DNA from: a virus
Taxonomy: Duplodnaviria; Heunggongvirae; Uroviricota; Caudoviricetes
DNA: 19,211 nucleotides
Strand: one strand, 5' to 3'
IMG/VR virus record: IMGVR_UViG_3300048670_001104
Shown: positions 1 to 19,211 of the stretch, in pieces
Numbering within the stretch: position 1 is the first letter of the stretch
How the letters are laid out: each line of letters begins with the position of its first letter
Program-made: the position numbers and the translations under genes
The notes under the pieces: generated by a model
Seen by the model: only the letters and a program-made list of their open reading frames with translations
What the model was told of the DNA's origin: nothing
Database searches by the model: none

Positions 1-2758
1 CATCATCGTCATCCATGTTTTCTTTGATGTAGTCGTAGATCATTTGTTCACTGTCTGACTCCCACCGAGAGTCAAATGCTTCGGATTGCCAGTCTGAAAA
101 ATCAGTCATCATGCTGTCGATCAGGCTGTCAACACTTCTGCGGGTGTTGTAATCACCGTCATAGAAAAAGTCTCGGATGTCTCTGGGGCTGCTGGCCCGT
201 TCATCTGAGTCGTAGTCAGGTTCCAGATCTCCGCCTTCGTCTTCACTTTGAGTATTGGGCACGATCATCTCAAATTCCATGCCGGCCAAGGCACCTGTTT
301 TGGCTGCTTCTTTTCGCAGGTTCTTACCACCCATGTTGATCTCAAACAGGTCCTGCTCTTTGAACTCACGCAACAGTTTTTGTAATCCTGCTGTGAGTAA
401 CGCAGGATGACCTTGTGAGTCTGTTTGTAATCCCAGTTTGTTGGCTTCTTTGCCCACAGCACCGGGACGCACATCTTTAGTTAGTGCCATAACGAATCGT
501 GGATCCCGAGCCTGCTTCCGCGTGGGGATGTAGCCTGATGCTTCGGACATGGTCTGCTCTGCGAATCCCATACCCTCGGCACCATACCTTGCATTGTCTT
601 GGGCTTTTAAATGTTCTAATACCGCAGGTAAATTATCAGTCTGTTGTATTTTCCACCCTTGCTTTTTAATATATGCAAATGGATCAGTTATGCGTTCTTG
701 CTTGATCGGGCGTCCCGGATTGCTGCTGAAATATTCACCGCTGGGCTTCTTCTCAAAATTTCCAGCATCAAAAACAGTGAGGTAAGATTGTTTATTTTTC
801 AGTTTAGGTATATCATTCTTGTCAAACCACACAGTGGGTTGTCCAGGACCATACTTGGCCACATACCGAGTTTCTGCACTGCTGCCAGTTGCATACAAGG
901 CGGTGAACAGTGGATCGCCGGCAAAAACTCCTTTAGTAGTATTAGTTTTAAGATTTTTATTCTTCCAATAACTATCGTCACCTGTGTCTACACCACTTTG
1001 GCTCCAATCGTCGGTGTGGCGGTAAGTATTCATTTTGGTAGAGAAATTACGGATACGATGCGGATCAATTCGAGTAACTACCGCAGTTTCATTGCCGATG
1101 CTTTCTTCCAGTGTAGCACCATCAAACATCTCGGGCTGTTCTTCTGCCCAGTCTCGCATGATACGACCGGCCATGGCATTGGCTTGATCTTCATACGGGC
1201 TACCAGTCTCACCTGCATCTGCGGGCAACGGACTCTTTTCGTCCTGCTGACGATGTGTCATCTCATGTGCCATGGTGCGAAGTATATCCAACACATGGCG
1301 ATTGGCAGTGGCCAAGATCAGTGTGTTGCTTTCTGGTTGGTATTGACCAAAACTGCCATTATCTTTGCTCCATTCCGGAGTGGTTTCCAACCGCAGTCTA
1401 GGTGGATTCTCTAACTCTAACTTGCTCACACAACTCCGGTAGAAACGATGCAGGATCTTCTTCAACTGATCTGGATCTACTGATTCCATGATGCCCGGCT
1501 TTGCAAATTTCGACAAGGCGGCCTGTGCCACTGCTTTATAATTTTTAGGATGTAGTCGATCTCCAGTGGTCGCTACATCAGCAAGACTCACATAAGCATC
1601 CCCACCAATGGCTGACAGCACATCGTCGCGAGCCGTTTCATAGAAAGGCAATATCCAAACATATTGTTTGGCTTTGAGAACATCTCGTATGCGACCGATA
1701 TTTTGTATCGTGGCCTTGCGGTTGGGGTTCTTGCCGCCGCCCTTCAAAATAGCATAATCATTGGTTCCGGCACTAACAATGGCCACATCAGCACCTTGCA
1801 CCTGGGGATTTGAACTAGCCGCATCAAGGATTTGTCTAGTGCTACGACCCACCACTGCTTCGTATGGTAGACCAGCAGCCTGTGCGATGCCCACGGCGAT
1901 GCTGTCTCCCACTACCACAATCCGGGGACCACTCACTGCTTCATCCACTTGCTCGGATTCAGTGCCGGCAGGATGATCTTGGCCAGCATAGGCTGTGCCC
2001 GGGAACCAGTAATCACGCATGCCATAATTCACACGCTTGCGAGGCTTGAGTGATTGTTCTAGACTGAGTTCACGATCACGAATGGCTGTCTTGGCATCTT
2101 TCAATCGACCAATGCAACCCATGTTCCGCAACAGTTTAAATGTGATATTCTCGCAGCCAAACTCGCCATTCTTTTCCAGGCCAGTTTTACGCATGTCCTT
2201 GATGCGATCCCACAGTCGATTGATGGCATCTGCATCACCCGATTCAACAGCGGCATGAATACGAGCGTCAAGATCTGCTGTTTTGTTCTGTACACATGAA
2301 TCATCTATCCGAGCTCGTCTGCGTTGTGGAACTTGATTCCAATCACCATTCTTTACACTGTAGATGCCTTGGCTCACATGTTTTTGATCCGCCGGCTGCA
2401 CATACAGTTCCACGGGCACGCCACCAATCCGGATGTCATGTTCGTCATTATATTGGTACTTTTTGGCGTTGAACAATTCCTGATACACAGGATCGTCAGG
2501 CATTTCTACCACAAGGTGTAGATCAATGTCGGAGTGGGGAGTGTAACTATAGGCAGCATTGCTGCCCGAGATGGTGATGTCCTGGACCGTGAGATCATCC
2601 ACGCCCAGGAACTCTTGGAAATCTGCTGCTATGGCCTGAAGTTTCTCTTGCACCTCTGGCAACAAGTGCTCGTCTGAACCCCATATTCTAGGGTTCAGAC
2701 GGCTATGGAATTTTACAGCATCGGCGAGATTAAAGTTGTCAAGATCATGGAAATTCAT
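1..2758 (-). CDS. Large multidomain (polyvalent-type) protein, >919 aa, 3' end beyond the window edge: Pol-beta-like nucleotidyltransferase + SGNH/GDSL hydrolase + HEXXH metallopeptidase + unknown module + putative amidoligase N-terminus
   Basis: Manually translated. ATG at 2758, bounded by an upstream in-frame TAG (2762-2764). No in-frame stop down to base 2, so the ORF track omits it. Motifs: ISGSNAAY..SDIDLH (G65/S66, D77/D79); VVGDS(284-286)..GTND(331-334)..DRLH(400-403); AHEMTH(498-502)..YEDQANAMAG; AGMEFE(826-830). TAAATA lies 4 nt upstream. Confidence 0.92.
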   Translation of the reverse strand, partial: MNFHDLDNFNLADAVKFHSRLNPRIWGSDEHLLPEVQEKLQAIAADFQEFLGVDDLTVQDITISGSNAAYSYTPHSDIDLHLVVEMPDDPVYQELFNAKKYQYNDEHDIRIGGVPVELYVQPADQKHVSQGIYSVKNGDWNQVPQRRRARIDDSCVQNKTADLDARIHAAVESGDADAINRLWDRIKDMRKTGLEKNGEFGCENITFKLLRNMGCIGRLKDAKTAIRDRELSLEQSLKPRKRVNYGMRDYWFPGTAYAGQDHPAGTESEQVDEAVSGPRIVVVGDSIAVGIAQAAGLPYEAVVGRSTRQILDAASSNPQVQGADVAIVSAGTNDYAILKGGGKNPNRKATIQNIGRIRDVLKAKQYVWILPFYETARDDVLSAIGGDAYVSLADVATTGDRLHPKNYKAVAQAALSKFAKPGIMESVDPDQLKKILHRFYRSCVSKLELENPPRLRLETTPEWSKDNGSFGQYQPESNTLILATANRHVLDILRTMAHEMTHRQQDEKSPLPADAGETGSPYEDQANAMAGRIMRDWAEEQPEMFDGATLEESIGNETAVVTRIDPHRIRNFSTKMNTYRHTDDWSQSGVDTGDDSYWKNKNLKTNTTKGVFAGDPLFTALYATGSSAETRYVAKYGPGQPTVWFDKNDIPKLKNKQSYLTVFDAGNFEKKPSGEYFSSNPGRPIKQERITDPFAYIKKQGWKIQQTDNLPAVLEHLKAQDNARYGAEGMGFAEQTMSEASGYIPTRKQARDPRFVMALTKDVRPGAVGKEANKLGLQTDSQGHPALLTAGLQKLLREFKEQDLFEINMGGKNLRKEAAKTGALAGMEFEMIVPNTQSEDEGGDLEPDYDSDERASSPRDIRDFFYDGDYNTRRSVDSLIDSMMTDFSDWQSEAFDSRWESDSEQMIYDYIKENMDDDD

Positions 2759-3775: not shown

Positions 3776-5389
3776 CTACGACCTGGCTTCGTCCAGATAA
3801 TCTTCCATCATGGGCTGATTGTATTTGCGTTGATAACTGGCCCGCAGGCCGCCTTGACTCATCTGGCGTGTGACTTGTTCAGCCATGCCTTGTTCGCCAA
3901 TCTGACGATATTCAGTGGGCCAATCAAAAACTATATTGTCGTATGCATCAAACACACCTTCAAGATAATCTCTCAATTCGTCGGGCACACGCTCTTTGCT
4001 CCAGTGACGGGGCATTTCTGCATCAGGACCATACCACAGTTTCCAAACGTCGGGAGTCCAGTAATCTAACGCATCACTGTCTAGATTGCCTGCTTTCTGT
4101 AATGCTGGTGCAACAGACTTATATCCCTCTCTGTTGGCCCAGTGAGCGAAGATTTTATGATACGGCTTGTGATTTTCCACAGCCCAATGATATAGATCTT
4201 TTACATCAGTCGGCGGCATCTGTGAGTCAGGGATCCGTGGTTCTCGTTGCATCCTGCCCATCAAGTTGTCAAATCTTTCATCGCCTGTGGCCTCTGTGAC
4301 TTCTGCACTCATGGCAGATTTGATTGCTCGGCGATTGTATATAGCAAATTGCCCGGCATCATCAGCGGTGCTGGACCAACCAGGCAGATCAGGCAAAATT
4401 CTTCGTATGATTCTGGCATACAATGCTCTACGATTGGGTTCCGCGGCTTGGAAATACAACAATGCAGGTCTGGCTTTTTTCACATACTGTATTATGGCAT
4501 TGATCACAATGCCAAATACTTCTGCGGCTGACCCTGTGCCTTCGATACCCTGCTTGGCCACTGGATGTCCGCCTTTCATGTCCTGTGTGATTTGTTCAAA
4601 ACTAACAAACTTGCTTTTGTTATATACCTCATCAGAATCAAAGAAATCATATGGGCTCATTTCATCTGGACCAATGTATGGTTCCAGGAAATCCAATTGA
4701 TATCGTACTCCATTGCTGGCAGTGAAGTTGAATTTGACCATGTCTGAATCACTGGTGTCCCACTGCGAAGTTGTGTTGCTTGCCTTGGTGTCTAATACTT
4801 CTGTCAACTCCGCACCCATGGCAGTGTCCAACATTTTAACCACTGTGTTGGCCAGTTTGGGGTTCTTCTGTGTGTTGGGATATAGACTCATGACCAATGC
4901 CATGCGTCGACGCTCATCCAGTTCGGGCCATGCTGTGCGAATCTCTGTGGCTGACCGCATGCCAGGCCCAAATGTAACTGTGGGCAGATAAGCCATGTAA
5001 GCGTGTTGAGTCATGGGTGCCATGCGGTCACTCACGGGTTGCAGATATGATGGGTTGCCATCCTTCTTCGTACCGCCGGCTTGTGGTGGTTTGGCAGCGT
5101 CTTTCTCACTACGCACAAAGATCAACTGTGTGTCGGCAGGATCATAGTTCCGTGTGATTTCTTCTGCGCGGAATGGACTCTTCACTTGATAGAAATCGCC
5201 AGGTGGCACCCCGGCCAACTGTGCTAGTTTCTCTTTTAGTCGGAATGGAAATGGGCGATTAGAAGTGTCGTTGGTGGCTGCCACTTTGACATCAGCACCA
5301 GGAAACGCCTGCAATGCAGACTGATAAAGTGCTAGGTGACCTGCGTGAAAAGGATGGAACCCACCGGGAATGATGACTAACTGTTTCAT
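3776..5389 (-). CDS. Multidomain protein: N-terminal HxGH (cytidylyltransferase-like) nucleotidyltransferase plus two uncharacterised domains
   Basis: 537 aa. IPGGFHPFHAGH (HxGH) and SATEIR (SxTxIR) delimit a class I NTase domain (aa 1-~190). Linkers AELTE/V (195-197), AEVTE/A (364-366) and EQGMAE/Q (499-504) separate further modules. Confidence 0.85.
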   Translation of the reverse strand: MKQLVIIPGGFHPFHAGHLALYQSALQAFPGADVKVAATNDTSNRPFPFRLKEKLAQLAGVPPGDFYQVKSPFRAEEITRNYDPADTQLIFVRSEKDAAKPPQAGGTKKDGNPSYLQPVSDRMAPMTQHAYMAYLPTVTFGPGMRSATEIRTAWPELDERRRMALVMSLYPNTQKNPKLANTVVKMLDTAMGAELTEVLDTKASNTTSQWDTSDSDMVKFNFTASNGVRYQLDFLEPYIGPDEMSPYDFFDSDEVYNKSKFVSFEQITQDMKGGHPVAKQGIEGTGSAAEVFGIVINAIIQYVKKARPALLYFQAAEPNRRALYARIIRRILPDLPGWSSTADDAGQFAIYNRRAIKSAMSAEVTEATGDERFDNLMGRMQREPRIPDSQMPPTDVKDLYHWAVENHKPYHKIFAHWANREGYKSVAPALQKAGNLDSDALDYWTPDVWKLWYGPDAEMPRHWSKERVPDELRDYLEGVFDAYDNIVFDWPTEYRQIGEQGMAEQVTRQMSQGGLRASYQRKYNQPMMEDYLDEARS

Positions 5390-6381: not shown

Positions 6382-6395
6382 CTGTATTTATACAG
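6382..6395 (-). promoter_or_regulatory. Exact T4-type late promoter TATAAATA (6385-6392) inside the inverted repeat CTGTAT-AA-ATACAG, overlapping the clpA stop
   Basis: Minus strand reads CTG-TATAAATA-CAGT-ATG. Confidence 0.7.
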
Positions 6396-8658
6396 GCAAT
6401 GGCACAGAGATTTCTGTTTTCACCGCAGTCTCAAACTCAATCTCATCGCCATTCAACACCACATTCAATGTGCAGTCGGTCAATTGATCAAACAAGATAC
6501 GCTTTGACAGCGGCACACGGATCAATTCATCAATCTTGCGATTCAACGGCCGAGCACCCATCTTGGAATCATAACCCTTTTCTGCCAGCAATTCAATCAC
6601 AGGCTCTGAAAAGAACAATTTAATATTCTTTTCCGCCACACTTGATTTGAGCTGATCCAAGAACTTCACCACAATCTTCTTGATGGCCAGTGTGTCCAGC
6701 TTGGTGAACTTGCAGATACGATCAATACGATTGCGTAGTTCTGGGCGGAAGAACTCTTTCATGGCACGATCTTCTTCTCCGGACTTTTCCAAATCTGTTG
6801 AGAATCCAATGTTGTTGTTTTCATTGTCTCGCGCACCCAGATTGCTGGTCATGATGATGATGGTGTTCTTGCAGTCCGCTCGCTTGCCATTGGCACCTGT
6901 CACATGACCCTCGTCCAGCATCTGTAGCAGGATGTTGGTAACATCACTGTGTGCTTTTTCGATCTCATCAAACAAGATCACAGAGAATGGATGCTTGCTC
7001 AAGTCCGAAATCAGTTTGCCACCGCCCACATTGCCATCTTCAAATCCCACATAGCCCGGAGGTGCACCAATCAGGCTGCTGACAGAGAACTTCTCCTGGA
7101 ACTCACTCATGTCATAGCGCAACAGATGCATGTCCAGATTCTCACTCAACAGCTTGGCCAATTCAGTTTTACCTGTACCTGTTGGGCCCAGGAACAAGAA
7201 TGACGCCATGGGCCGGTTTGGAGTACCAATGCCCGAGAAGTTGATGTACACACGCTCTAACACAGCATCCACAGCAGTTTCTTGACCGTACAGCTTCTGC
7301 TTGATGTTTGATTCCAGGTCCACTATCTTCACACTGCGCTCATTCTGCAGTCGATCTGTGGGCACACCGGTCACACGAGACAACTGTTCTTCGATCATGC
7401 CTTTGTTCACAGTGGTCATACCTGAATCTTTCACACGCTCTCGGGCACAGGCAGCGTCCAACAAGTCAATTGATTTGTCAGGATTCTTCTTGTCATGGAT
7501 GTATCGGGCTGCTAGATCCACAGCGGCAGTCATGGCCTCTGTGTCGATCAGCACATTGTGGAATGCTTCCAATCGTGGTGAGAGTCCGATCAAGATCTTC
7601 TCAGTGGTGTCACGGTCCGGTTCGTCAATTGACAACCTGTAGAAACGGCGCATGAGGGCACGATCTTTCTCGAAACTCTCGTAATACTCTTCCCATGTGG
7701 TCGACGCAATCACCTTCAAGTTGCCCTTGGTGATGGCAGGTTTCAACATGTTGGCAAAGTCCAGGCTGCCTGAACTGCCTGCCCCTGCACCTTTCATGGT
7801 GTGTGCTTCATCAATGAACAAGATCGATTTCTTCTTGCTTTCCAGTGCAGAGATTACTGCTTTGAACTTTTCTTCAAAGTCGCCGCGATACTTGGATCCT
7901 GCCACAAGACTGCCAATCTCCAGGCTCCATACTTCGTGATCCTTCAAGAACTCGGGCACACGGCCCTGTGTGATCTCTTGTGCCAGTCCTTCGATGATGG
8001 CAGTTTTGCCCACGCCCGGATCGCCTACCATGAGCACATTGCTTTTGAATCGGCGTGCCAACACAGCGATCATTTCTTCTAGTTCTGTAGCGCGACCAAT
8101 TAAGGGTTCCAGTCGATCTGTCCGGGCCAGCGTGGTGAGGCTGGTGCAGTATTCTTCCAGCACTTCTGTGGCCTGTTGATCATTCATACCAGCTGACTTT
8201 TCTGACTTGTAATGACGTTTCCAGAACTCAGCAAATTCGCCCTTGGTCACTCCAAACTTCAGCAAGAAGTAGTGTGCATGGCTGTTGGTTTCACTCATGA
8301 TGGCCAGATAAAGATCTATGGTGACGATCTGTCTGCGTCCCGAAAACAGCACTTGCGTGAGCGCACGGTTGAACACACGCTCCAGGCCCTGCGTCTTGCG
8401 TGGTGTGGCTTCGCCATCTGTTACCAGACTCTGGCAACTGTCGAGATAGCCGCACAGTTCTGTTTCCAGCATGGCCACATCGCAGCCAAATTTGTTTAGG
8501 GTTTTGCGAAATGGTTCGTGACGTATCAGGCTCAACAACAGATGTTCTGTGAGCACATATTCATGCCGCCAGGTTCGTGCGATGGTCACTGCGCCTTCGA
8601 TGATGGCGTCGATTTCGGGATTGTCTTGCATAGCGTTTTGTCCGTGTGAGTTGCTCAT
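6388..8658 (-). CDS. clpA: ClpA-like Hsp100/Clp AAA+ ATPase
   Basis: 756 aa. Clp N-domain (HEYVLTEHLLLSL), NBD1 GDPGVGKT and ILFIDEAH, NBD2 GPTGTGKT and ILFDEIEKAH, GAPPGYVGF pore loop, NIGF ClpP-docking loop, GARPL. No ClpB-type long middle domain. An alternative start at ATG 8631 (MQDNPE) is plausible. Confidence 0.93.
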   Translation of the reverse strand: MSNSHGQNAMQDNPEIDAIIEGAVTIARTWRHEYVLTEHLLLSLIRHEPFRKTLNKFGCDVAMLETELCGYLDSCQSLVTDGEATPRKTQGLERVFNRALTQVLFSGRRQIVTIDLYLAIMSETNSHAHYFLLKFGVTKGEFAEFWKRHYKSEKSAGMNDQQATEVLEEYCTSLTTLARTDRLEPLIGRATELEEMIAVLARRFKSNVLMVGDPGVGKTAIIEGLAQEITQGRVPEFLKDHEVWSLEIGSLVAGSKYRGDFEEKFKAVISALESKKKSILFIDEAHTMKGAGAGSSGSLDFANMLKPAITKGNLKVIASTTWEEYYESFEKDRALMRRFYRLSIDEPDRDTTEKILIGLSPRLEAFHNVLIDTEAMTAAVDLAARYIHDKKNPDKSIDLLDAACARERVKDSGMTTVNKGMIEEQLSRVTGVPTDRLQNERSVKIVDLESNIKQKLYGQETAVDAVLERVYINFSGIGTPNRPMASFLFLGPTGTGKTELAKLLSENLDMHLLRYDMSEFQEKFSVSSLIGAPPGYVGFEDGNVGGGKLISDLSKHPFSVILFDEIEKAHSDVTNILLQMLDEGHVTGANGKRADCKNTIIIMTSNLGARDNENNNIGFSTDLEKSGEEDRAMKEFFRPELRNRIDRICKFTKLDTLAIKKIVVKFLDQLKSSVAEKNIKLFFSEPVIELLAEKGYDSKMGARPLNRKIDELIRVPLSKRILFDQLTDCTLNVVLNGDEIEFETAVKTEISVPLPV

Positions 8659-8705: not shown

Positions 8706-9485
8706 TTATTTGGCAGATTCCTGCTGTATAGCAGCCAATAATTCTTCAGGTATCTGTGTGGGGATCTCGGCCTGCATGCGTACCAGCATGTCACCCCGGG
8801 TGCCGGATCGATCCGGAAATCCCCTACCACGTGCTCGCAACAGGCTGCCGGGCTGTGTTCTGGGTGGGATGCTGAGCTCAATCCTATTACCTCGGATGTC
8901 CATCATGGTCATAGTACCACCGGAGATCAATTTCCAAATACTGGTCATATGTTCCACAGTGACATTGTTGCCTGTGCGTTGCCAGATTCGGTCTGGATGG
9001 ATTCGGAATGTGATCACAAGATCCTGCCCGCCAGGGCCCAGTCCAGAAAACTGCACATTGTCGCCGTCCTGTATACCATTGGGAATGGTGATTTCAATGT
9101 TGTGTGTGCCGGTATTGGTACCCATGGCCACCACTCTAGCACCGGGATTGGCCACATCTTGCGTGGTTATCCACAAGGTCATCCTGGCATGGCCACGCTG
9201 CTGTGGTTGTTGGAATTTGGCACCAAACATGTTGAAGATTTCATTGAAGTCAAAACTCTGATGGAATCCTCCTGCACCCGGTGGCATCTGAGGTTGCGGA
9301 TTGTTATAAGCCGCACGTTTCTTGTCATCGCCCAGTGTGTCGTAGGCTGCTTGTATCTCTTGGAATTTCTTTGTGTCCCCGCCCTTGTCCGGATGATGCT
9401 GGCTGGCTAGTTTTCTAAAAGCCCGTTTGATTTCATCGGCTGAAGCGGTGCGGGCAACACCCAGTGTGGCGTAATAATCAGTCAT
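8706..9485 (-). CDS. dnaJ: DnaJ/CbpA-type J-domain co-chaperone (J domain + DnaJ C-terminal domain, no zinc finger)
   Basis: 259 aa. DYYATLGV..EIKRAFRKLASQHHPDKGGD (HPD motif), short G/F region, C-terminal LRARGRGFP..GDMLV. Confidence 0.9.
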   Translation of the reverse strand: MTDYYATLGVARTASADEIKRAFRKLASQHHPDKGGDTKKFQEIQAAYDTLGDDKKRAAYNNPQPQMPPGAGGFHQSFDFNEIFNMFGAKFQQPQQRGHARMTLWITTQDVANPGARVVAMGTNTGTHNIEITIPNGIQDGDNVQFSGLGPGGQDLVITFRIHPDRIWQRTGNNVTVEHMTSIWKLISGGTMTMMDIRGNRIELSIPPRTQPGSLLRARGRGFPDRSGTRGDMLVRMQAEIPTQIPEELLAAIQQESAK

Positions 9486-11488: not shown

Positions 11489-12211
11489 TTAATATCCAAA
11501 TCTAGCCTTGTATTGAGCATACAATCCCTGTATGTCTGCTGTGGTGAATACTCCACTGTAGGCCTTTACCAGTCCTATATTGCCGGTTTGCGTTTCAGTG
11601 CCACTGGATCTGCTGAACAATCTCAACTGATTGAAACCACCACCGCCGGCATTGGTGCCTGTGTATGTAAAGGTGGTGGGCTGGGTGTTGGTTGCTATCC
11701 AAAGTTGCCCTGTGCTGGTTGTGGTATTCCATGTTGCCCATCCAAAATGCCACACAAGATCAGCACCTGACCCAGGCAAGTTCACCGAGAAGTTGGGATA
11801 GAACGTGTCAGGATTGCCATTGTACAGGCCCATCAACCAATCCTTGCTGGCTTCATTCTGGGTGTTTAACAGTCTACCACTGGCTGTGGCAGTTCTTTGA
11901 TACACCATAAACACACTATAACTCTGTCCGGTAACCCAGTTGGGGCCGCCATACATGGTATCTGTGGTTGAGCCACTGGCACCAGTGAATGAGAACACAC
12001 CACCATTGGAGCTGCCCCAGCTGAGTCTGCTGGTGCTGTTGGTCACTGTTATAGGAAAGCCGCCTGTGCCATCTACCACACTTCCGTTCACGGGCAATGC
12101 TGAATAATTAGCTGCGTCAAGATTGTACACCAAGGTCACACTTGGAACAAAATCACCGGCAAAAGTGATTCCGCCTCCCATGGTGATTCCTGGTCCAACA
12201 ACTATTGGCAT
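11489..12211 (-). CDS. LamG/ConA-like lectin-domain protein, putative fibre or decoration protein
   Basis: 240 aa. N-terminal MPIVVGPGITMGGGITF, then LVYNLDAANY, GGVFSFTG, WHFGWATWN, GNIGLVKAYSGVFT..I..LY..YKARFG. Confidence 0.65.
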   Translation of the reverse strand: MPIVVGPGITMGGGITFAGDFVPSVTLVYNLDAANYSALPVNGSVVDGTGGFPITVTNSTSRLSWGSSNGGVFSFTGASGSTTDTMYGGPNWVTGQSYSVFMVYQRTATASGRLLNTQNEASKDWLMGLYNGNPDTFYPNFSVNLPGSGADLVWHFGWATWNTTTSTGQLWIATNTQPTTFTYTGTNAGGGGFNQLRLFSRSSGTETQTGNIGLVKAYSGVFTTADIQGLYAQYKARFGY

Positions 12212-13608: not shown

Positions 13609-14466
13609 TTAGTTCAAGCCCATACTCCGACGGATTTCCGTTCCGGATATACTCGTAATAGATTCATCAAACTTTTCTTCTTCTATTGTATATCCTACTC
13701 CGCGACCGTAACCAATGTGAGTAATATTAGGAACTACTAATATTTCATATTGCCCTTGATATAACGGATCAAGATCTCGTTTAATAGCATGTTTAACCTG
13801 GACAATGGCAAATGGATTACTATTTTGCCAGCCTTGACAGTCGCGAATCATGATGCATACCTGCCCCGTTCTTTGTATCAATCTATCAAACAATGCACGA
13901 TGTCCGGCATGCCACGGTTGCCATCTGCCAAGTTGTTCAACCGTTTCTTTTCGCCAGTCAAACACAGGTCGTCGTCGATTTGCCAATATATGTTCACCAA
14001 TGAATTCTGCCCAGTGGTCGGCATTTTGTTCTGTTATACGGAAATCATACACTTCAGGCGGCACAAACACTTGATTGGTATCCGCATAACGACCTGCATC
14101 AATGGTGTCCATCCATATGCACCAGTCGGCTTTGAAGTTGTTGCGCTGTTCCGCCAATGGTGCCACAAAGTCACAGATCACATAGTCACCTGTGCATTTT
14201 AGCGCAAAATCGGCCATGCGGAGACTTTGACGTATGCGGCCTTCCCGGCTGAAGTCCCAGTCATTGTAGCGTTTGCGTATTTCGTCGGCGTTGAACCAAT
14301 CCACCTGTGAATGATATGTGACAGGTGTGTGTTCCATGTTTATGCTACGATACCAGGGCATGGTTTTGACACTGCTGTTTGTTTCCAGATACTGTTTTAA
14401 TGCCGTGGCAAGATATGTTTTGCCCGAGCCCGGCAAGCCCATTATGAGTATTTTTTGTGCGTTCAT
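13609..14466 (-). CDS. APS-kinase(CysC)-like P-loop kinase fused to a C-terminal HxGH nucleotidyltransferase-like domain
   Basis: GLPGSGKT, WFNADEIR, VICDFVAP, FVPP..YD; then LGRWQPWHAGH and ISGTEIR. Confidence 0.8.
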   Translation of the reverse strand: MNAQKILIMGLPGSGKTYLATALKQYLETNSSVKTMPWYRSINMEHTPVTYHSQVDWFNADEIRKRYNDWDFSREGRIRQSLRMADFALKCTGDYVICDFVAPLAEQRNNFKADWCIWMDTIDAGRYADTNQVFVPPEVYDFRITEQNADHWAEFIGEHILANRRRPVFDWRKETVEQLGRWQPWHAGHRALFDRLIQRTGQVCIMIRDCQGWQNSNPFAIVQVKHAIKRDLDPLYQGQYEILVVPNITHIGYGRGVGYTIEEEKFDESITSISGTEIRRSMGLN

Positions 14467-15685: not shown

Positions 15686-17398
15686 TTAGCCCACATACCA
15701 AGAAGTGCCGTTGCTCCATACTGGCATTGCATTGCCTGACCCACCAGTGTAAAGGTTGCCAAACGTAACGCTGTCAGCATCAGTCACAAACGCTCTGGCA
15801 CCTGCTCCCACCCCGGATGCGGTTGGGATAGTACCTGTGACAAATGATCCAGTTTTGACTACTCCGGCAGTTGAAATATTACCACCGGTGATGTTACCGG
15901 TTGCACTAATCAATTGACCAATTGTTAATCTATCAGCATTGATATATTGACTGTATAAAATTGAGTTTAATGATGTGCCAGCAAATGTGGAGTTTGCTTT
16001 GTCATAAACAGCGTTTAGAATAGAATAGAAACCACCAAAACTATTTCTTGCTACATTTGTTAAATCAGGTATCAGAGTTTGGCAATTGTTTACTGTTATT
16101 ACTGAACCAACACTTTGTGTTATGGCATTGCCTGTATTAGCAGCGGCATAAATCAGCGTGTCAGAAAGTTGTAGCGTTCCTGCTGTCAGCGTCACTGGTC
16201 CCATTGAAACAACTGATTTGGCCAAAACTCCAGCAGCCGCATTGTTCACAGCGAGTGTAAAATAATTACCACCAACCATAACAGTTGTACCTGTACCAGT
16301 GATACTTAATGAGGCCGAAGATATATCACATCCTCTAAAATTTGTATATGCACTTGAAGTTTTTGTTACCGCAGTTGTTACTGTACAACCAATAATATCA
16401 ACTGACCCAGTTGCTGAAGTTGCCGAGATAACAAGATTGGACATCTTTAAACCATCAATGGTACATCCTGTTGTAATAGTCAATGTACCAGTCAGTGTGG
16501 TATTTTTACCCACCAACTCGTGTGTGGTTAACACAGTGTATTGAGTATCAATGGTTACATTTTCTACATAATCACCTGGATGCAACACGATTGTTTTTCT
16601 TTGTCCCGCAGCAGATGTTTCAAAGGCTTGCGCCAATAATACCTTGGCTCTAGCAATGGTTTTGACTGGGGTGCCAATAGTACCGTTACCAGTATCATCA
16701 AGAGCACTAGGGCTAACATGAATTTCTATTGCATATCCTGTGATGTATATGCTTGACGCATCTATATAGTTGCTGTATGTGACAACTCCTGTTCCTTCAA
16801 CATACTGTAAAACTCTTTTGGTTGCATACGCACTGGTAGCACCACTTTGAGCAAATATATAATTACCCAGTATTTTTCCGCCAGTGTTAATATTACCACC
16901 AGTGATGTTACCAGTCACTGAAATTTCTCCGTTAACATTCACTCCATCTTCGATAGTGACAAAACTGGAATCATCACTGCGAATGCTGTTGATCACTAGA
17001 TTGACCGCAGCAAGATTGTTGGCTGTGACATTACCGGTCACTGATACTAATGTACCGGTATGACTTGCTACGTTCACAATGTTAGTGAACATACCATTGT
17101 TGGCTGTGACATTACCGGTCACTGATAACAACCCATTGATATACTCACCTGTGGTGGCAAACACTGCTATGTTTGATATGCCACCAATGCTAATGTTTGC
17201 ATTGCCATTGGCAGTTTGGATATCAATGCTGGTTGTGCCATTTTGAATTCTATCGCCCAGGATGTTGCCACTTAATGTGGCGTTACCAGTCACACTCAGA
17301 TTACCAGTGATTGCTACTGCACCTGTAATTGATAGCGTGTTTGCTCCAGAGTTTAAATCTATCAAATGATTGCCATTGGTTACAAAAGATGACGACAT
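15686..17398 (-). CDS. Tail-fibre-like protein with (S)VTGN(V/I)T repeats and a central beta-helix-like module
   Basis: 570 aa rich in G/T/N/S. Repeats LSVTGNA, LSVTGNVTANN, VSVTGNVTANN, ISVTGNITGGN, ISATGNITGGN. IHVSP..DD.GNGT..PVKTIARA..LHPGDY is typical of the start of parallel beta-helix domains. Confidence 0.75.
   Translation of the reverse strand: MSSSFVTNGNHLIDLNSGANTLSITGAVAITGNLSVTGNATLSGNILGDRIQNGTTSIDIQTANGNANISIGGISNIAVFATTGEYINGLLSVTGNVTANNGMFTNIVNVASHTGTLVSVTGNVTANNLAAVNLVINSIRSDDSSFVTIEDGVNVNGEISVTGNITGGNINTGGKILGNYIFAQSGATSAYATKRVLQYVEGTGVVTYSNYIDASSIYITGYAIEIHVSPSALDDTGNGTIGTPVKTIARAKVLLAQAFETSAAGQRKTIVLHPGDYVENVTIDTQYTVLTTHELVGKNTTLTGTLTITTGCTIDGLKMSNLVISATSATGSVDIIGCTVTTAVTKTSSAYTNFRGCDISSASLSITGTGTTVMVGGNYFTLAVNNAAAGVLAKSVVSMGPVTLTAGTLQLSDTLIYAAANTGNAITQSVGSVITVNNCQTLIPDLTNVARNSFGGFYSILNAVYDKANSTFAGTSLNSILYSQYINADRLTIGQLISATGNITGGNISTAGVVKTGSFVTGTIPTASGVGAGARAFVTDADSVTFGNLYTGGSGNAMPVWSNGTSWYVG
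17015..17127. repeat. Perfect 32-nt direct repeat (17015-17046 and 17096-17127), 81 nt apart
   Basis: attgttggctgtgacattaccggtcactgata occurs twice and encodes SVTGNVTANN. Confidence 0.9.
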
Positions 17399-17588: not shown

Positions 17589-18320
17589 TTGAGTAGACAA
17601 AGAGGGGCCAAGGCCCAAATCCAAAAACAAATCATGGTAGAAAACACAATTCCTTTTAACCAACCCAAGCAACGACAAAGACCTATAGAACTTATCCCAA
17701 AATCAAGAAATCAAGAAAATCTCATACTAAATCTACTCAACCAAGATCAAAGTATCGTGGTCGCAGTTGGACCCGCAGGCACAGGTAAAACCTACTTGGC
17801 CATGTTGGCTGCTGTGCGAGCGTTCAGATCAGGTGAAGCAAAACGCATCATCCTAACACGACCGGCCATTGGCGTAGAAGACGAACAGCACGGGTTCTTA
17901 CCCGGGAATCTCGTTGCCAAGATGGAACCGTGGACTCGTCCCTTGCTGGATGTGTTGCGTGAATACTATCGCCCGCCTGAAATTGCTGCCATGATAGACG
18001 ATGGCACCGTCGAAATATCACCCTTGGCTTACATGCGAGGTCGCACATTTAAACATGCGTGGATCATCGCGGATGAGATGCAGAACGCCACGCCAGCACA
18101 GATGAAAATGCTGCTGAGTCGCATAGGCACTGAATCACGCATTGTAGTCACAGGTGATGTTGAACAGGCTGACCGAGCCAAAGGCCAAAACGGTTTGTTA
18201 GATCTCTGCTCACGTTTAGAGCACTATCCAGTCACAGGAATGGCTGTTTGCAGGCTAAACGGACGAGACATACAACGTCACCCTATTATTGGAAAGGTGC
18301 TGGCTCTTTATGATCAATAA
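17589..18320 (+). CDS. phoH: PhoH-like ATPase
   Basis: IPKSRNQ, GPAGTGKT, ILTRP, GFLPGNL..KMEPW, PLAYMRGRTF, IIADEMQN, IVVTGDVEQ, DIQRHPII. TTG start with AGGAG. Confidence 0.93.
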   Translation: MSRQRGAKAQIQKQIMVENTIPFNQPKQRQRPIELIPKSRNQENLILNLLNQDQSIVVAVGPAGTGKTYLAMLAAVRAFRSGEAKRIILTRPAIGVEDEQHGFLPGNLVAKMEPWTRPLLDVLREYYRPPEIAAMIDDGTVEISPLAYMRGRTFKHAWIIADEMQNATPAQMKMLLSRIGTESRIVVTGDVEQADRAKGQNGLLDLCSRLEHYPVTGMAVCRLNGRDIQRHPIIGKVLALYDQ

Positions 18321-18331
18321 CTAACTGATAA

Positions 18332-18354
18332 GAACCTGGACCAGTTCCAGGTTC
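18332..18354. terminator. 9-bp hairpin between convergent phoH and radical SAM genes (possible bidirectional terminator)
   Basis: GAACCTGGA-CCAGT-TCCAGGTTC. No clear U-tract on either side. Confidence 0.5.
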
Positions 18355-19211
18355 ATTCTCCGCAGTTGTATTGGCAAGCTGAATGGTCAGACACTGTGCG
18401 ATGAAATTCTGCCACTGTGGCTCTGTTCAATATTTCGATCAGCGTGGTATCTGAGATGGCGTATTGTTTTTTATTTTTGCCAAATTCGTTTTTGTAATAA
18501 AATCTGTGATCTCCTATGAAACAACAGGGCATGTAATAGCCGTCGGCTGAGATATAATGTGTTCCCCCACGGTGACATTTGGGATTTATTTTTTTTGTTG
18601 ACTGTGATTGTTTCCAATTTTGTTGATTATTCCATTTTGTTCCAGGGTTGCTTTTGGTAGGCTTGAAATGCATGGTCTGCTCATCAAATCTATCACTGTG
18701 ATTGATATGGAATTGATCCATGCCCAAGTCTTGACTCAACTGTCTTGCTTGTTCTATGTTGTTTTCGTTGTAGGAAAAAGGAATAAAACTCCAGGCAGTG
18801 CTGCACGGTGATTCCACACAAACTTCAATGGCATCTTGTATGGTGGTCCAATCACCATTGATTCTGTACTGGGTGAAATTTTCCGGTATACCATCTATAG
18901 AAAATGTTATCAAGTCATCAGATGACAGCTCCTGAACCAGTGCTTGCCACCAACTTCGTTTTCGATGGCTGCCATTTGTGACTATTGATATAGTGGCACC
19001 GCGAGATTTAAGACTCCGGATCATTCCCGCTAGATCAGGGTGATAAATCGGATCACCATAATTTCCACACAGATCTATGCGAATGTCAGATAACTCAATA
19101 TCCAAAAACTTCAGCAATGATTGTGTGTCTAGGCTGTGATTTTTCCAATGGGCAGGCCATTGATTGATGAATCTGGTTCTGGCACATCCAGGACATTTTA
19201 ATGTACAAATA
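18353..19211 (-). CDS. Radical SAM protein with C-terminal SPASM/twitch-like Cys cluster; 5' end beyond the window edge
   Basis: The frame stays open upstream of the track's TTG. ICTLKCPGCAR gives CxxxCxxC at 19207-19184, followed by CGNYGDP, IVTNGS, FSIDG, KC..ISADGYYMPCC..CQYNC. Confidence 0.88.
   Translation of the reverse strand, partial: ICTLKCPGCARTRFINQWPAHWKNHSLDTQSLLKFLDIELSDIRIDLCGNYGDPIYHPDLAGMIRSLKSRGATISIVTNGSHRKRSWWQALVQELSSDDLITFSIDGIPENFTQYRINGDWTTIQDAIEVCVESPCSTAWSFIPFSYNENNIEQARQLSQDLGMDQFHINHSDRFDEQTMHFKPTKSNPGTKWNNQQNWKQSQSTKKINPKCHRGGTHYISADGYYMPCCFIGDHRFYYKNEFGKNKKQYAISDTTLIEILNRATVAEFHRTVSDHSACQYNCGE

Follow-up and report, generated by a model that had tools for sequence, protein, structure and literature searches.

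What does a long reading frame that runs off the end of a tailed-phage contig encode, and how would a chain of unrelated enzymatic modules made as one product come to act? We addressed these questions for IMG/VR record IMGVR_UViG_3300048670_001104 (Caudoviricetes), of which the whole 19,211-nucleotide stretch analyzed is referred to here as the window. The window is phage DNA, with endolysin, holin- and spanin-like genes, PhoH, virion-protein PHROGs, a Clp-type ATPase and a DnaJ homologue. On its minus strand, a single stop-free frame of 919 codons (2..2758) begins with an ATG at 2758 and is open at the left edge; it is missing from the open reading frame (ORF) track because ORF lists by default omit open-ended frames. 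A sequence-only reading had already picked out this hidden, uninterrupted frame of more than 919 amino acids (aa) and divided it into at least six modules, here called M1 to M6. We think it probable, from motif comparison and from analogy with phage T4, that the frame is the N-terminal part of an enzyme cargo polyprotein that would be loaded into the capsid, cut by a protease and injected into the host.

The open frame and its joints

The first 43 bases of the gene have exact matches in four viral contigs only, all of them relatives, and these contigs encode full-length chains of 2,560 aa (P0122, on L001), 2,547 aa (P0385, on L002), 2,006 aa (on L007) and 2,017 aa (on L004). The window chain is collinear with the chains of four independent contigs at 87-96% identity; for P0122, identity is 93% over window aa 1-555 and 87% over aa 736-919. 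No frameshift, a possibility that the sequence-only reading had itself raised, splits this chain, which is collinear with its full-length relatives. Its multi-enzyme, polyvalent character as first proposed is upheld, but given relatives of 2,006-2,560 aa the window holds only the N-terminal ~36-46% of a chain that is most likely a precursor and not one working protein. A search of the protein collection returned more than 1,200 relatives of 505-1,609 aa, mostly carrying PF12224 (Amidoligase_2). Many family members lie on contigs of 100-365 kb, and relatives' records reach about 367 kb. Among the extra modules in relatives are a deaminase, GNAT, a ParB-like motif, a second HExxH and small basic modules, and chitinase plus LysM is found on some family members. 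Megablast of the window DNA against phage records gave zero matches, and the window chain had no match in NCBIfam or, taken whole, in PDB.

The chain is divided by five joints, QVDE/ (Glu273), GIME/ (Glu425), TLEE/ (Glu552), TMSE/ (Glu739) and DLFE/ (Glu806), where a slash marks the joint. All five are of the form hydrophobic-x-Glu, and all five Glu positions coincide with homology breakpoints in 120 relatives. The module limits drawn earlier from the letters of the window (~260/274, 424/426, 551/553, 738/740 and 805/807) match these same sites and breakpoints. In most relatives aa 274 abuts aa 425, and aa 555 abuts aa 736, so that M2 and M4 are precise insertions. Relatives that share more than 90% identity are set apart by the presence or absence of whole modules, and wherever a breakpoint is exact to the residue it falls at hydrophobic-x-Glu; in two full-length relatives, 5/5 breakpoints lie exactly at PVTE/, AMAE/ or TVAE/, QIKE/ or QIRE/, GVAE/ or SVQE/, and SMVE/ or SINE/. 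Within P0122, 38 of the 168 Glu residues (~23%) have a hydrophobic residue at P3, against every Glu at residue-exact joints. An automated breakpoint test on the window chain placed the motif at 6/8 clusters, with 1.5 expected.

Module M4 is absent from P0385, is shifted by ~1,450 residues toward the C-terminus in P0122 (a copy 54% identical to that of the window) and occupies at least four placements across the family, and the motif fits the joints flanking it in all six placements compared. The window's own order is found in P0022, an independent contig (48% identity) on which the zincin (M3), M4 and the 'ASGYIP' module (M5) follow one another as they do here, so this order is not an assembly chimera. 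Domain shuffling among homologues, which the sequence-only reading had thought worth surveying, is evident in cassettes gained, lost and moved between phages that are nearly identical. Alignment across the family shows the chain to be a string of independent cassettes, connected by short linkers and exchanged exactly at hydrophobic-x-Glu joints.

A similar arrangement is seen in the neighboring gene at 3776..5389 (minus strand). Its 537-aa product begins with a cytidylyltransferase-like region (HxGH), followed by a DUF6934-like cassette of 168 aa that lies between ELTE/ and EVTE/ and then by a C-terminal module; no HExxH was found in it. In a relative of this protein (83-88% identity) exactly aa 198-365 are missing, and the sequence there reads QVAE/ATGDERF.

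Proposed loading and cleavage, and the alternatives

The joint motif has a known reader in T4, where gp21 cuts after L/I-X-E in the prohead during maturation (PMC9026906). A 10-residue capsid-targeting sequence (CTS) is enough to bring T4 internal proteins into the core of the prohead, after which it is cut off (PMC9026906); it reads MKTYQEFIAE (PMC8442874). The T4 protein Alt, an ADP-ribosyltransferase (ART), is packaged, trimmed by gp21 and ejected into the host (PMC9026906). In the family studied here, proteins that begin with M4 carry leaders such as MRASEFIAE/, MRATEFITE/, MRAKEFLYE/ and MRIQEIITE/. Ten of the Met-starting M4-first proteins (at least ~51% identity) begin MR[AI]xE[FI], seven of them with Glu at position 9, and the leader MRAxEF[IL]xE has EFIAE in common with the T4 CTS. 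At the loci of eight relatives, 3-7 same-strand ORFs directly downstream of the polyprotein gene begin M[RK][AS]xEF[IL]xE (L001:13074-16681, L002:17894-21511, L004:15337-20501 and L007:15301-20803; also on L005, L006, L009 and L015). Leader-tagged ORFs of this kind were found neither in the window nor at the head-gene locus, nor upstream of the polyprotein gene; the window's equivalent of the cluster would fall past its left edge. One of the tagged genes (L005:17264-17458) consists of the leader and a stand-alone 'NFADGR' basic module, which sits inside P0122 after GVAE/.

Head genes of the T4 type are encoded in related genomes. Peptidase_S77 (99.5 and 87.3 bits) and Gp23 (~330 bits) are matched in two records, G005 (367 kb, 100% complete) and G003, the 192-kb record of the 2,017-aa chain; Peptidase_S77 had no match in three other, fragmentary records. 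A relative's gene for a gp21-type protease is located at L026:5010-5651. A scaffold-like protein of G003 has 7.1% hydrophobic-x-Glu sites, compared with ~1.5% in the polyprotein, and the N-terminus of its capsid protein contains LLE/G twice. As judged by homology, the relatives' genomes are those of T4-related giant phages.

Under the reading that we favor, the polyprotein would enter the prohead core, where the head protease would cut after each joint Glu and free separate enzymes. These would stay in the head, leave it together with the DNA at ejection, like T4 Alt and IPI-III, and act at once on host molecules. There, M1 would probably transfer nucleotidyl groups, M2 hydrolyze esters, perhaps those of cell-wall O-acetyl groups, M3 cleave proteins and M6 form amide bonds, and M4 might contribute an NAD-dependent modification. 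The sequence-only reading had imagined a delivered toolkit; the idea fits, and its delivery part is now better founded than before, through the joints, the leaders, the gene cluster and the gp21-type protease in relatives. A wider generalization is tentative and, in our judgement, somewhat likelier to fail than to hold. The joints would be universal module boundaries, so that any cassette ending in hydrophobic-x-Glu could slot in, or stand behind a CTS leader, and still be released inside the capsid as a functional protein; the gene would be a rapidly re-shuffled carrier of at least ten different enzymes per virion, and DUF6886, the family of M4, would be an ART clade not recognized before, in the role of T4 Alt.

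Several observations weigh against a packaged and injected cargo. The main gap is at the start of the chain, which reads MNFHDLDNF in the window and MNI[THN]EL in relatives and so lacks an MRAxEFIxE leader. The gp21-type head protease is shown for relatives' genomes only, and the upstream neighbors are the Clp-type ATPase, DnaJ and lysis genes, not head genes. In T4, moreover, Asp at P1 stops cleavage but not loading (PMC9026906). Cleavage, packaging and ejection are all steps that we infer. With regard to the motif, the linkers are acidic, and some x-x-Glu is thus expected from composition. Across ten queries the automated breakpoint test gave only ~2-4 fold enrichment, with many post-amidoligase breakpoints lacking the motif; the test is noisy, as plain divergence can end a BLAST match too.

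The chain could also work as one large multi-domain protein that is never cut, its hydrophobic-x-Glu ends being a recombination-tolerant style of linker; an N-terminus without the canonical leader would suit this. We regard this uncleaved enzyme as unlikely, although it is the best of the alternatives. The motif is kept at each joint despite differing flanking modules and linker lengths, and it is hard to see why selection would hold three spaced residues in linkers that are otherwise free to vary unless something reads them; moreover, an identical motif ends a removable leader in single-module genes.

A slightly less likely proposal is that the chain processes itself, the joints being cut in the head or after injection by its own zincins, namely M3 and, in P0122, a second, C-terminal HExxH module. 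Autoproteolysis by such domains was proposed by Iyer et al. 2017 (PMC5512222), M3 is among the few modules found in essentially all 120 relatives, its HExxH and following Glu are invariant, and further phage proteins have this small zincin in fusion with other enzymes. However, joints are also present in zincin-free proteins, P0123 and P0254 (a superoxide dismutase-SGNH fusion joined at LVAE/G), which favors a protease acting in trans. Joints also end the CTS-like leaders of single-module genes, and the motif is the known specificity of gp21, whose homologues are encoded in related genomes. We know of no hydrophobic-x-Glu specificity among ImmA/IrrE-like peptidases.

We consider it improbable that the polyprotein is cut in the cytoplasm of the infected cell and serves phage replication, for instance nucleotide or DNA-modification metabolism, without ever being packaged. 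Metabolic-type modules (deaminase, nucleotidyltransferase, amidoligase), the cytidylyltransferase-like neighbor and the kinase-like and radical-SAM proteins also encoded in the window would suit such a role. T4 gp21 acts in the prohead (PMC9026906), so its motif would have no obvious reader in this setting, and the tie to CTS-like leaders speaks for the capsid; entry, more than replication, is what one would expect of partners directed at the cell wall (PG_binding_1 in P0256, chitinase and LysM on family members). Finally, a chimeric or mis-assembled contig end or a pseudogene is close to refuted: the frame is cut by the end of a single metagenomic contig and the exact proteins (P0124, P0001) have no record elsewhere, yet 2,757 bases are free of stops, collinearity and the shared first 43 bases tie the gene to four independent contigs, the zincin-M4-M5 order recurs in P0022, and the catalytic residues are intact in every module tested (alignments of M1 to M4).

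Predicted activities of the modules

If the frame does encode a packaged cargo, its contents can be read module by module from the N-terminus. M1 (aa 1-245; 2024..2758, minus strand) is firmly predicted to be a two-domain Pol-beta-superfamily nucleotidyltransferase (NTase), with an NTase core followed by a helical domain, in keeping with what the sequence-only reading had proposed. It matches PHROG 36119 (E 7e-44), and G65-S66, D77-x-D79 and E117 are invariant in alignments of 16 and 40 sequences that include fused and stand-alone forms. An AlphaFold2 model with a predicted local distance difference test (pLDDT) score of 82 was matched by Foldseek to CdnE, AadA and AAD(9) at E 6e-5 to 9e-4 (prob 0.98-0.99) and further to ANT(4'), DncV, MNT and TENT5; VIA gave Z 7.3 to 2rff. 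The match to Pfam NTP_transf_2 was 15 bits (cut-off 21). The linker that follows (aa 246-273; 1940..2023, minus strand) has a basic patch and then a Gly/acidic stretch leading to the joint QVDE/A, and homology to relatives ends at aa 246-249 and at aa 274.

Stand-alone NTase homologues of cultured cyanophages have no long leader; a short N-terminal I-x-E of the family was considered as a candidate mini-leader. Another stand-alone homologue, in Prevotella phage Lak-C1 (L029; MK250029.1 488881-489588), reads through four in-frame TAG codons, which agrees with the recoded stop of Lak megaphages. The NTase-zincin linker of many relatives, among them P0273, P0306, P0326, P0358 and P0365, contains tandem mini-units of the form 'xPDGVxPxTxMFLxE' (~17-20 aa, 1-3 copies) with joint-like ends. 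The window chain has none of these units, which could serve as spacer peptides or resemble leaders placed internally.

M2 (aa 274-425; 1484..1939, minus strand) is a predicted SGNH/GDSL-type hydrolase cassette that ends in the joint GIME/S. Its blocks I (GDS, 284-286), II (G304), III (GxND, 331-334) and V (D/E-x-x-H403) are all invariant in 14 sequences (alignment A4), the residue three before the His being acidic, either D or E. Pfam GDSL matches are sub-threshold at E 0.01-0.05 (Lipase_GDSL_2, 14.7 bits against a cut-off of 32.9; Lipase_GDSL, 16.1 bits against 23.6), and the best match of the M2 profile in PDB is an acylhydrolase, 4hf7 (E 0.04), in register. These results support the SGNH module recognized earlier by its motifs. 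Only about 4-5 of the 120 relatives have it. In P0254 an SGNH module follows an Fe/Mn superoxide dismutase, while P0256 has the leader MKILDILLE/S, then an SGNH module, PG_binding_1 and a C-terminal region that we read as putatively lysozyme-like. The position of an M2-type module beside PG_binding_1 and this region hints at a cell-wall ester as the predicted substrate.

M3 (aa 426-552; 1103..1483, minus strand) is a small gluzincin-type metallopeptidase-like module ending in the joint TLEE/S. H498-E-x-x-H502 and E523, a Glu 20 residues on, are invariant in its alignment. In the Atlas, language-model features place it at 0.95 to viral 'IrrE N-terminal-like' clusters, only 14-19% of whose members carry Peptidase_M78, and its structure compares at template modeling (TM) scores of 0.82-0.92 with small viral proteins, as well as with fusions to other nucleotide enzymes. 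The match to Pfam DUF6782 (E 0.008, 15.9 bits) lies below the cut-off of 27, and the M3 profile had one weak, irrelevant match in PDB. The IrrE/ImmA-like zincin named by the sequence-only reading thus has its HExxH, its invariant Glu and its feature-space neighbors. The second HExxH module of P0122 (aa 2423-2487, on L001), at the C-terminal end, bears a weak resemblance to the phage-exclusion protease Lit (NCBIfam, E 0.019) and to Peptidase_M10 (E 0.05).

M4 (aa 553-739; 542..1102, minus strand) is a 187-aa cassette ending in the joint TMSE/A. Its 129 representatives are found in proteins of about 70-1,470 aa, in which the position of the module varies. Some 60 of these show 49-64% identity and sit at no fixed place in proteins of 170-1,470 aa, and there is a tail of stand-alone proteins of ~170-200 aa. 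R563, D565, S588-G589, Y622, E675 and E728 are near-invariant. DUF6886 (PF21820) is matched by 39 of 58 aligned members (best E 5.8e-13); the window copy itself scores 17.4 bits (cut-off 27), and one stand-alone relative scores above the cut-off. An AlphaFold2 model (pLDDT 92) has TM scores of 0.73/0.71 over 163 residues to a DUF6886 cluster in the Atlas. By profile and model comparison M4 belongs to the DUF6886 superfamily, which gives a place to a module that the sequence-only reading had rightly set apart but had left as unknown.

The fold of M4 is a more delicate matter. When the M4 model was compared by VIA with solved structures, at least 17 of the best 50 rows were ART-fold proteins, all with Z < 5 (best 4.7), and R563, S588 and E675 occupy strands in the same order as the residues of an R-S-E triad. 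In R-S-E ARTs, the Arg is on strand 1 and Ser-x-Ser on strand 2, followed by the catalytic Glu, and the M4 residues presumably resemble this toxin motif. Foldseek against PDB returned nothing at E <= 0.001, the M4 profile matched only de novo designed proteins among PDB sequences, a loose Pfam scan of 58 members found no recurring ART family, and BFVD yielded two unnamed viral proteins and no ART match; tblastn against phages matched one uncultured megaphage. We put the predicted ART fold at about even chances, as a weak structural theme that sequence methods did not confirm.

M5 (aa 740-806; 341..541, minus strand) is the conserved 67-aa 'ASGYIPT..DPRF..VRPG' module, ending in the joint DLFE/I, and is present in essentially all 120 relatives. 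The short module picked out by the sequence-only reading is a unit in its own right and separable from the amidoligase, from which inserts of 130-338 aa part it in P0030, P0031 and P0075. M6 begins at aa 807, and its first 113 residues (aa 807-919; 2..340, minus strand) comprise the first strand (GMEFE) and the acidic insert of a predicted Amidoligase_2 unit that runs beyond the left edge; they lie before the matched part of the Amidoligase_2 profile. Window aa 736-919 are 87% identical to P0122 aa 549-734, and P0122 then matches Amidoligase_2 at aa 822-969 with 25.5 bits (cut-off 22). Above the Pfam cut-off in four full-length relatives (25.5-27.4 bits), this match supports the amidoligase start that had been suggested from the GxEFE motif. 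There is no breakpoint cluster within P0122 aa 620-1098. Comparison of the amidoligase unit with PDB gave nothing useful.

Related systems and neighboring genes

A close published parallel is the class of polyvalent proteins, known from phages as well as conjugative elements (Iyer, Burroughs, Anand, de Souza and Aravind 2017, PMC5512222). Like the window chain, these are very large phage polypeptides in which many enzymatic domains of unrelated kinds are combined, a Pol-beta NTase and a zincin-like metallopeptidase among them, and they too are predicted to travel with DNA and to act in host conflict. At least three unrelated enzymatic domains in one polypeptide of a phage or conjugative element define the class, and here there are an NTase, an SGNH hydrolase, a zincin, DUF6886 and an amidoligase. 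Amidoligase and SGNH domains, both in the window chain, are unmentioned in that paper, and its model relies on autoproteolysis by the metallopeptidase, whereas here we see a T4 head-protease motif, CTS-tagged single genes and an island of such genes beside the chain.

T4 IPI-III and Alt (PMC9026906, PMC3012670, PMC8442874) resemble the present system in the gp21 and gp23 homologues of T4-type genomes (in relatives), the EFIAE leaders and the L/I-x-Glu-type motif. Their cargo also varies between related phages, and the small basic modules found here recall the internal proteins. In contrast, T4 cargo is encoded by single genes and cut once or twice, while here up to ~14 units lie in one chain with internal joints and no canonical leader. 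The inner-body and ejection proteins of phiKZ, 201phi2-1 and SPN3US (PMC9026906, PMC5694885) offer a second parallel, as many proteins are packed in the heads of these giant phages and a protease related to gp21 cleaves behind the Glu of a three-residue motif, in many cases more than once per protein. Their motif is S/A-x-Glu, however, the substrates have not been described as chains of unlike enzymes, and the lineage here is T4-type and not phiKZ-type. Amidoligase_2 proteins (PF12224) are predicted COOH-NH2 ligases; here the ligase, above cut-off in full-length relatives and represented in the window by its first strand and acidic insert, is the constant core of a giant polyprotein and not a single-domain protein.

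Positive-strand RNA viruses make polyproteins, in which a viral protease recognizes short consensus sites in a single translation product and so releases several enzymes from it. Here, by comparison, the genome is that of a dsDNA phage, the predicted protease is a capsid maturation enzyme acting in trans within the prohead, and the products would be delivered cargo and not replication enzymes. To our knowledge tailed dsDNA phages are not known for polyproteins, and our literature search found no paper linking 'polyprotein' with the prohead protease in giant phages. If the proposed loading and cleavage hold true, a large and widespread group of uncultured T4-related giant phages would load a changeable set of at least ten enzymes into the capsid from one gene, and a simple sequence rule, leader plus joints, would predict injected phage proteins. 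Such a rule would yield a catalogue of first-minute host-takeover and anti-defense enzymes, including families with no assigned function (DUF6886, DUF6934 and the 67-aa module), and would supply, from nature, design rules for packing several foreign proteins into capsids of the T4 type, already in use as delivery particles. Whether recombination at protease sites drives the diversification of cargo would then become a testable question.

Elsewhere in the window, a ClpA/B-type double-AAA+ ATPase (6388-8658, minus strand; PHROG 4871, E 1e-234) adjoins a full DnaJ homologue with DnaJ and DnaJ_C domains (8706-9485, minus strand). This chaperone pair could bear on the unfolding or refolding of packed proteins. 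Further genes encode a P-loop kinase-like protein (13609-14466, minus strand; PHROG 10255), a radical-SAM domain protein (18353-19210, minus strand) and PhoH (17589-18320, plus strand); the combination of a kinase and radical SAM is reminiscent of phage DNA hypermodification pathways. Two ORFs of 570 aa (15686-17398, minus strand) and 240 aa (11489-12211, minus strand) have no family match and zero hydrophobic-x-Glu sites, the larger having a Gly/Asn/Thr-rich, repetitive start that is fiber-like in look. The T4 late-promoter consensus TATAAATA has one exact match in the window, at 6385-6392 on the minus strand, which is not significant against 0.3 expected; the match lies upstream of a five-gene minus-strand block whose last gene is the polyprotein gene.

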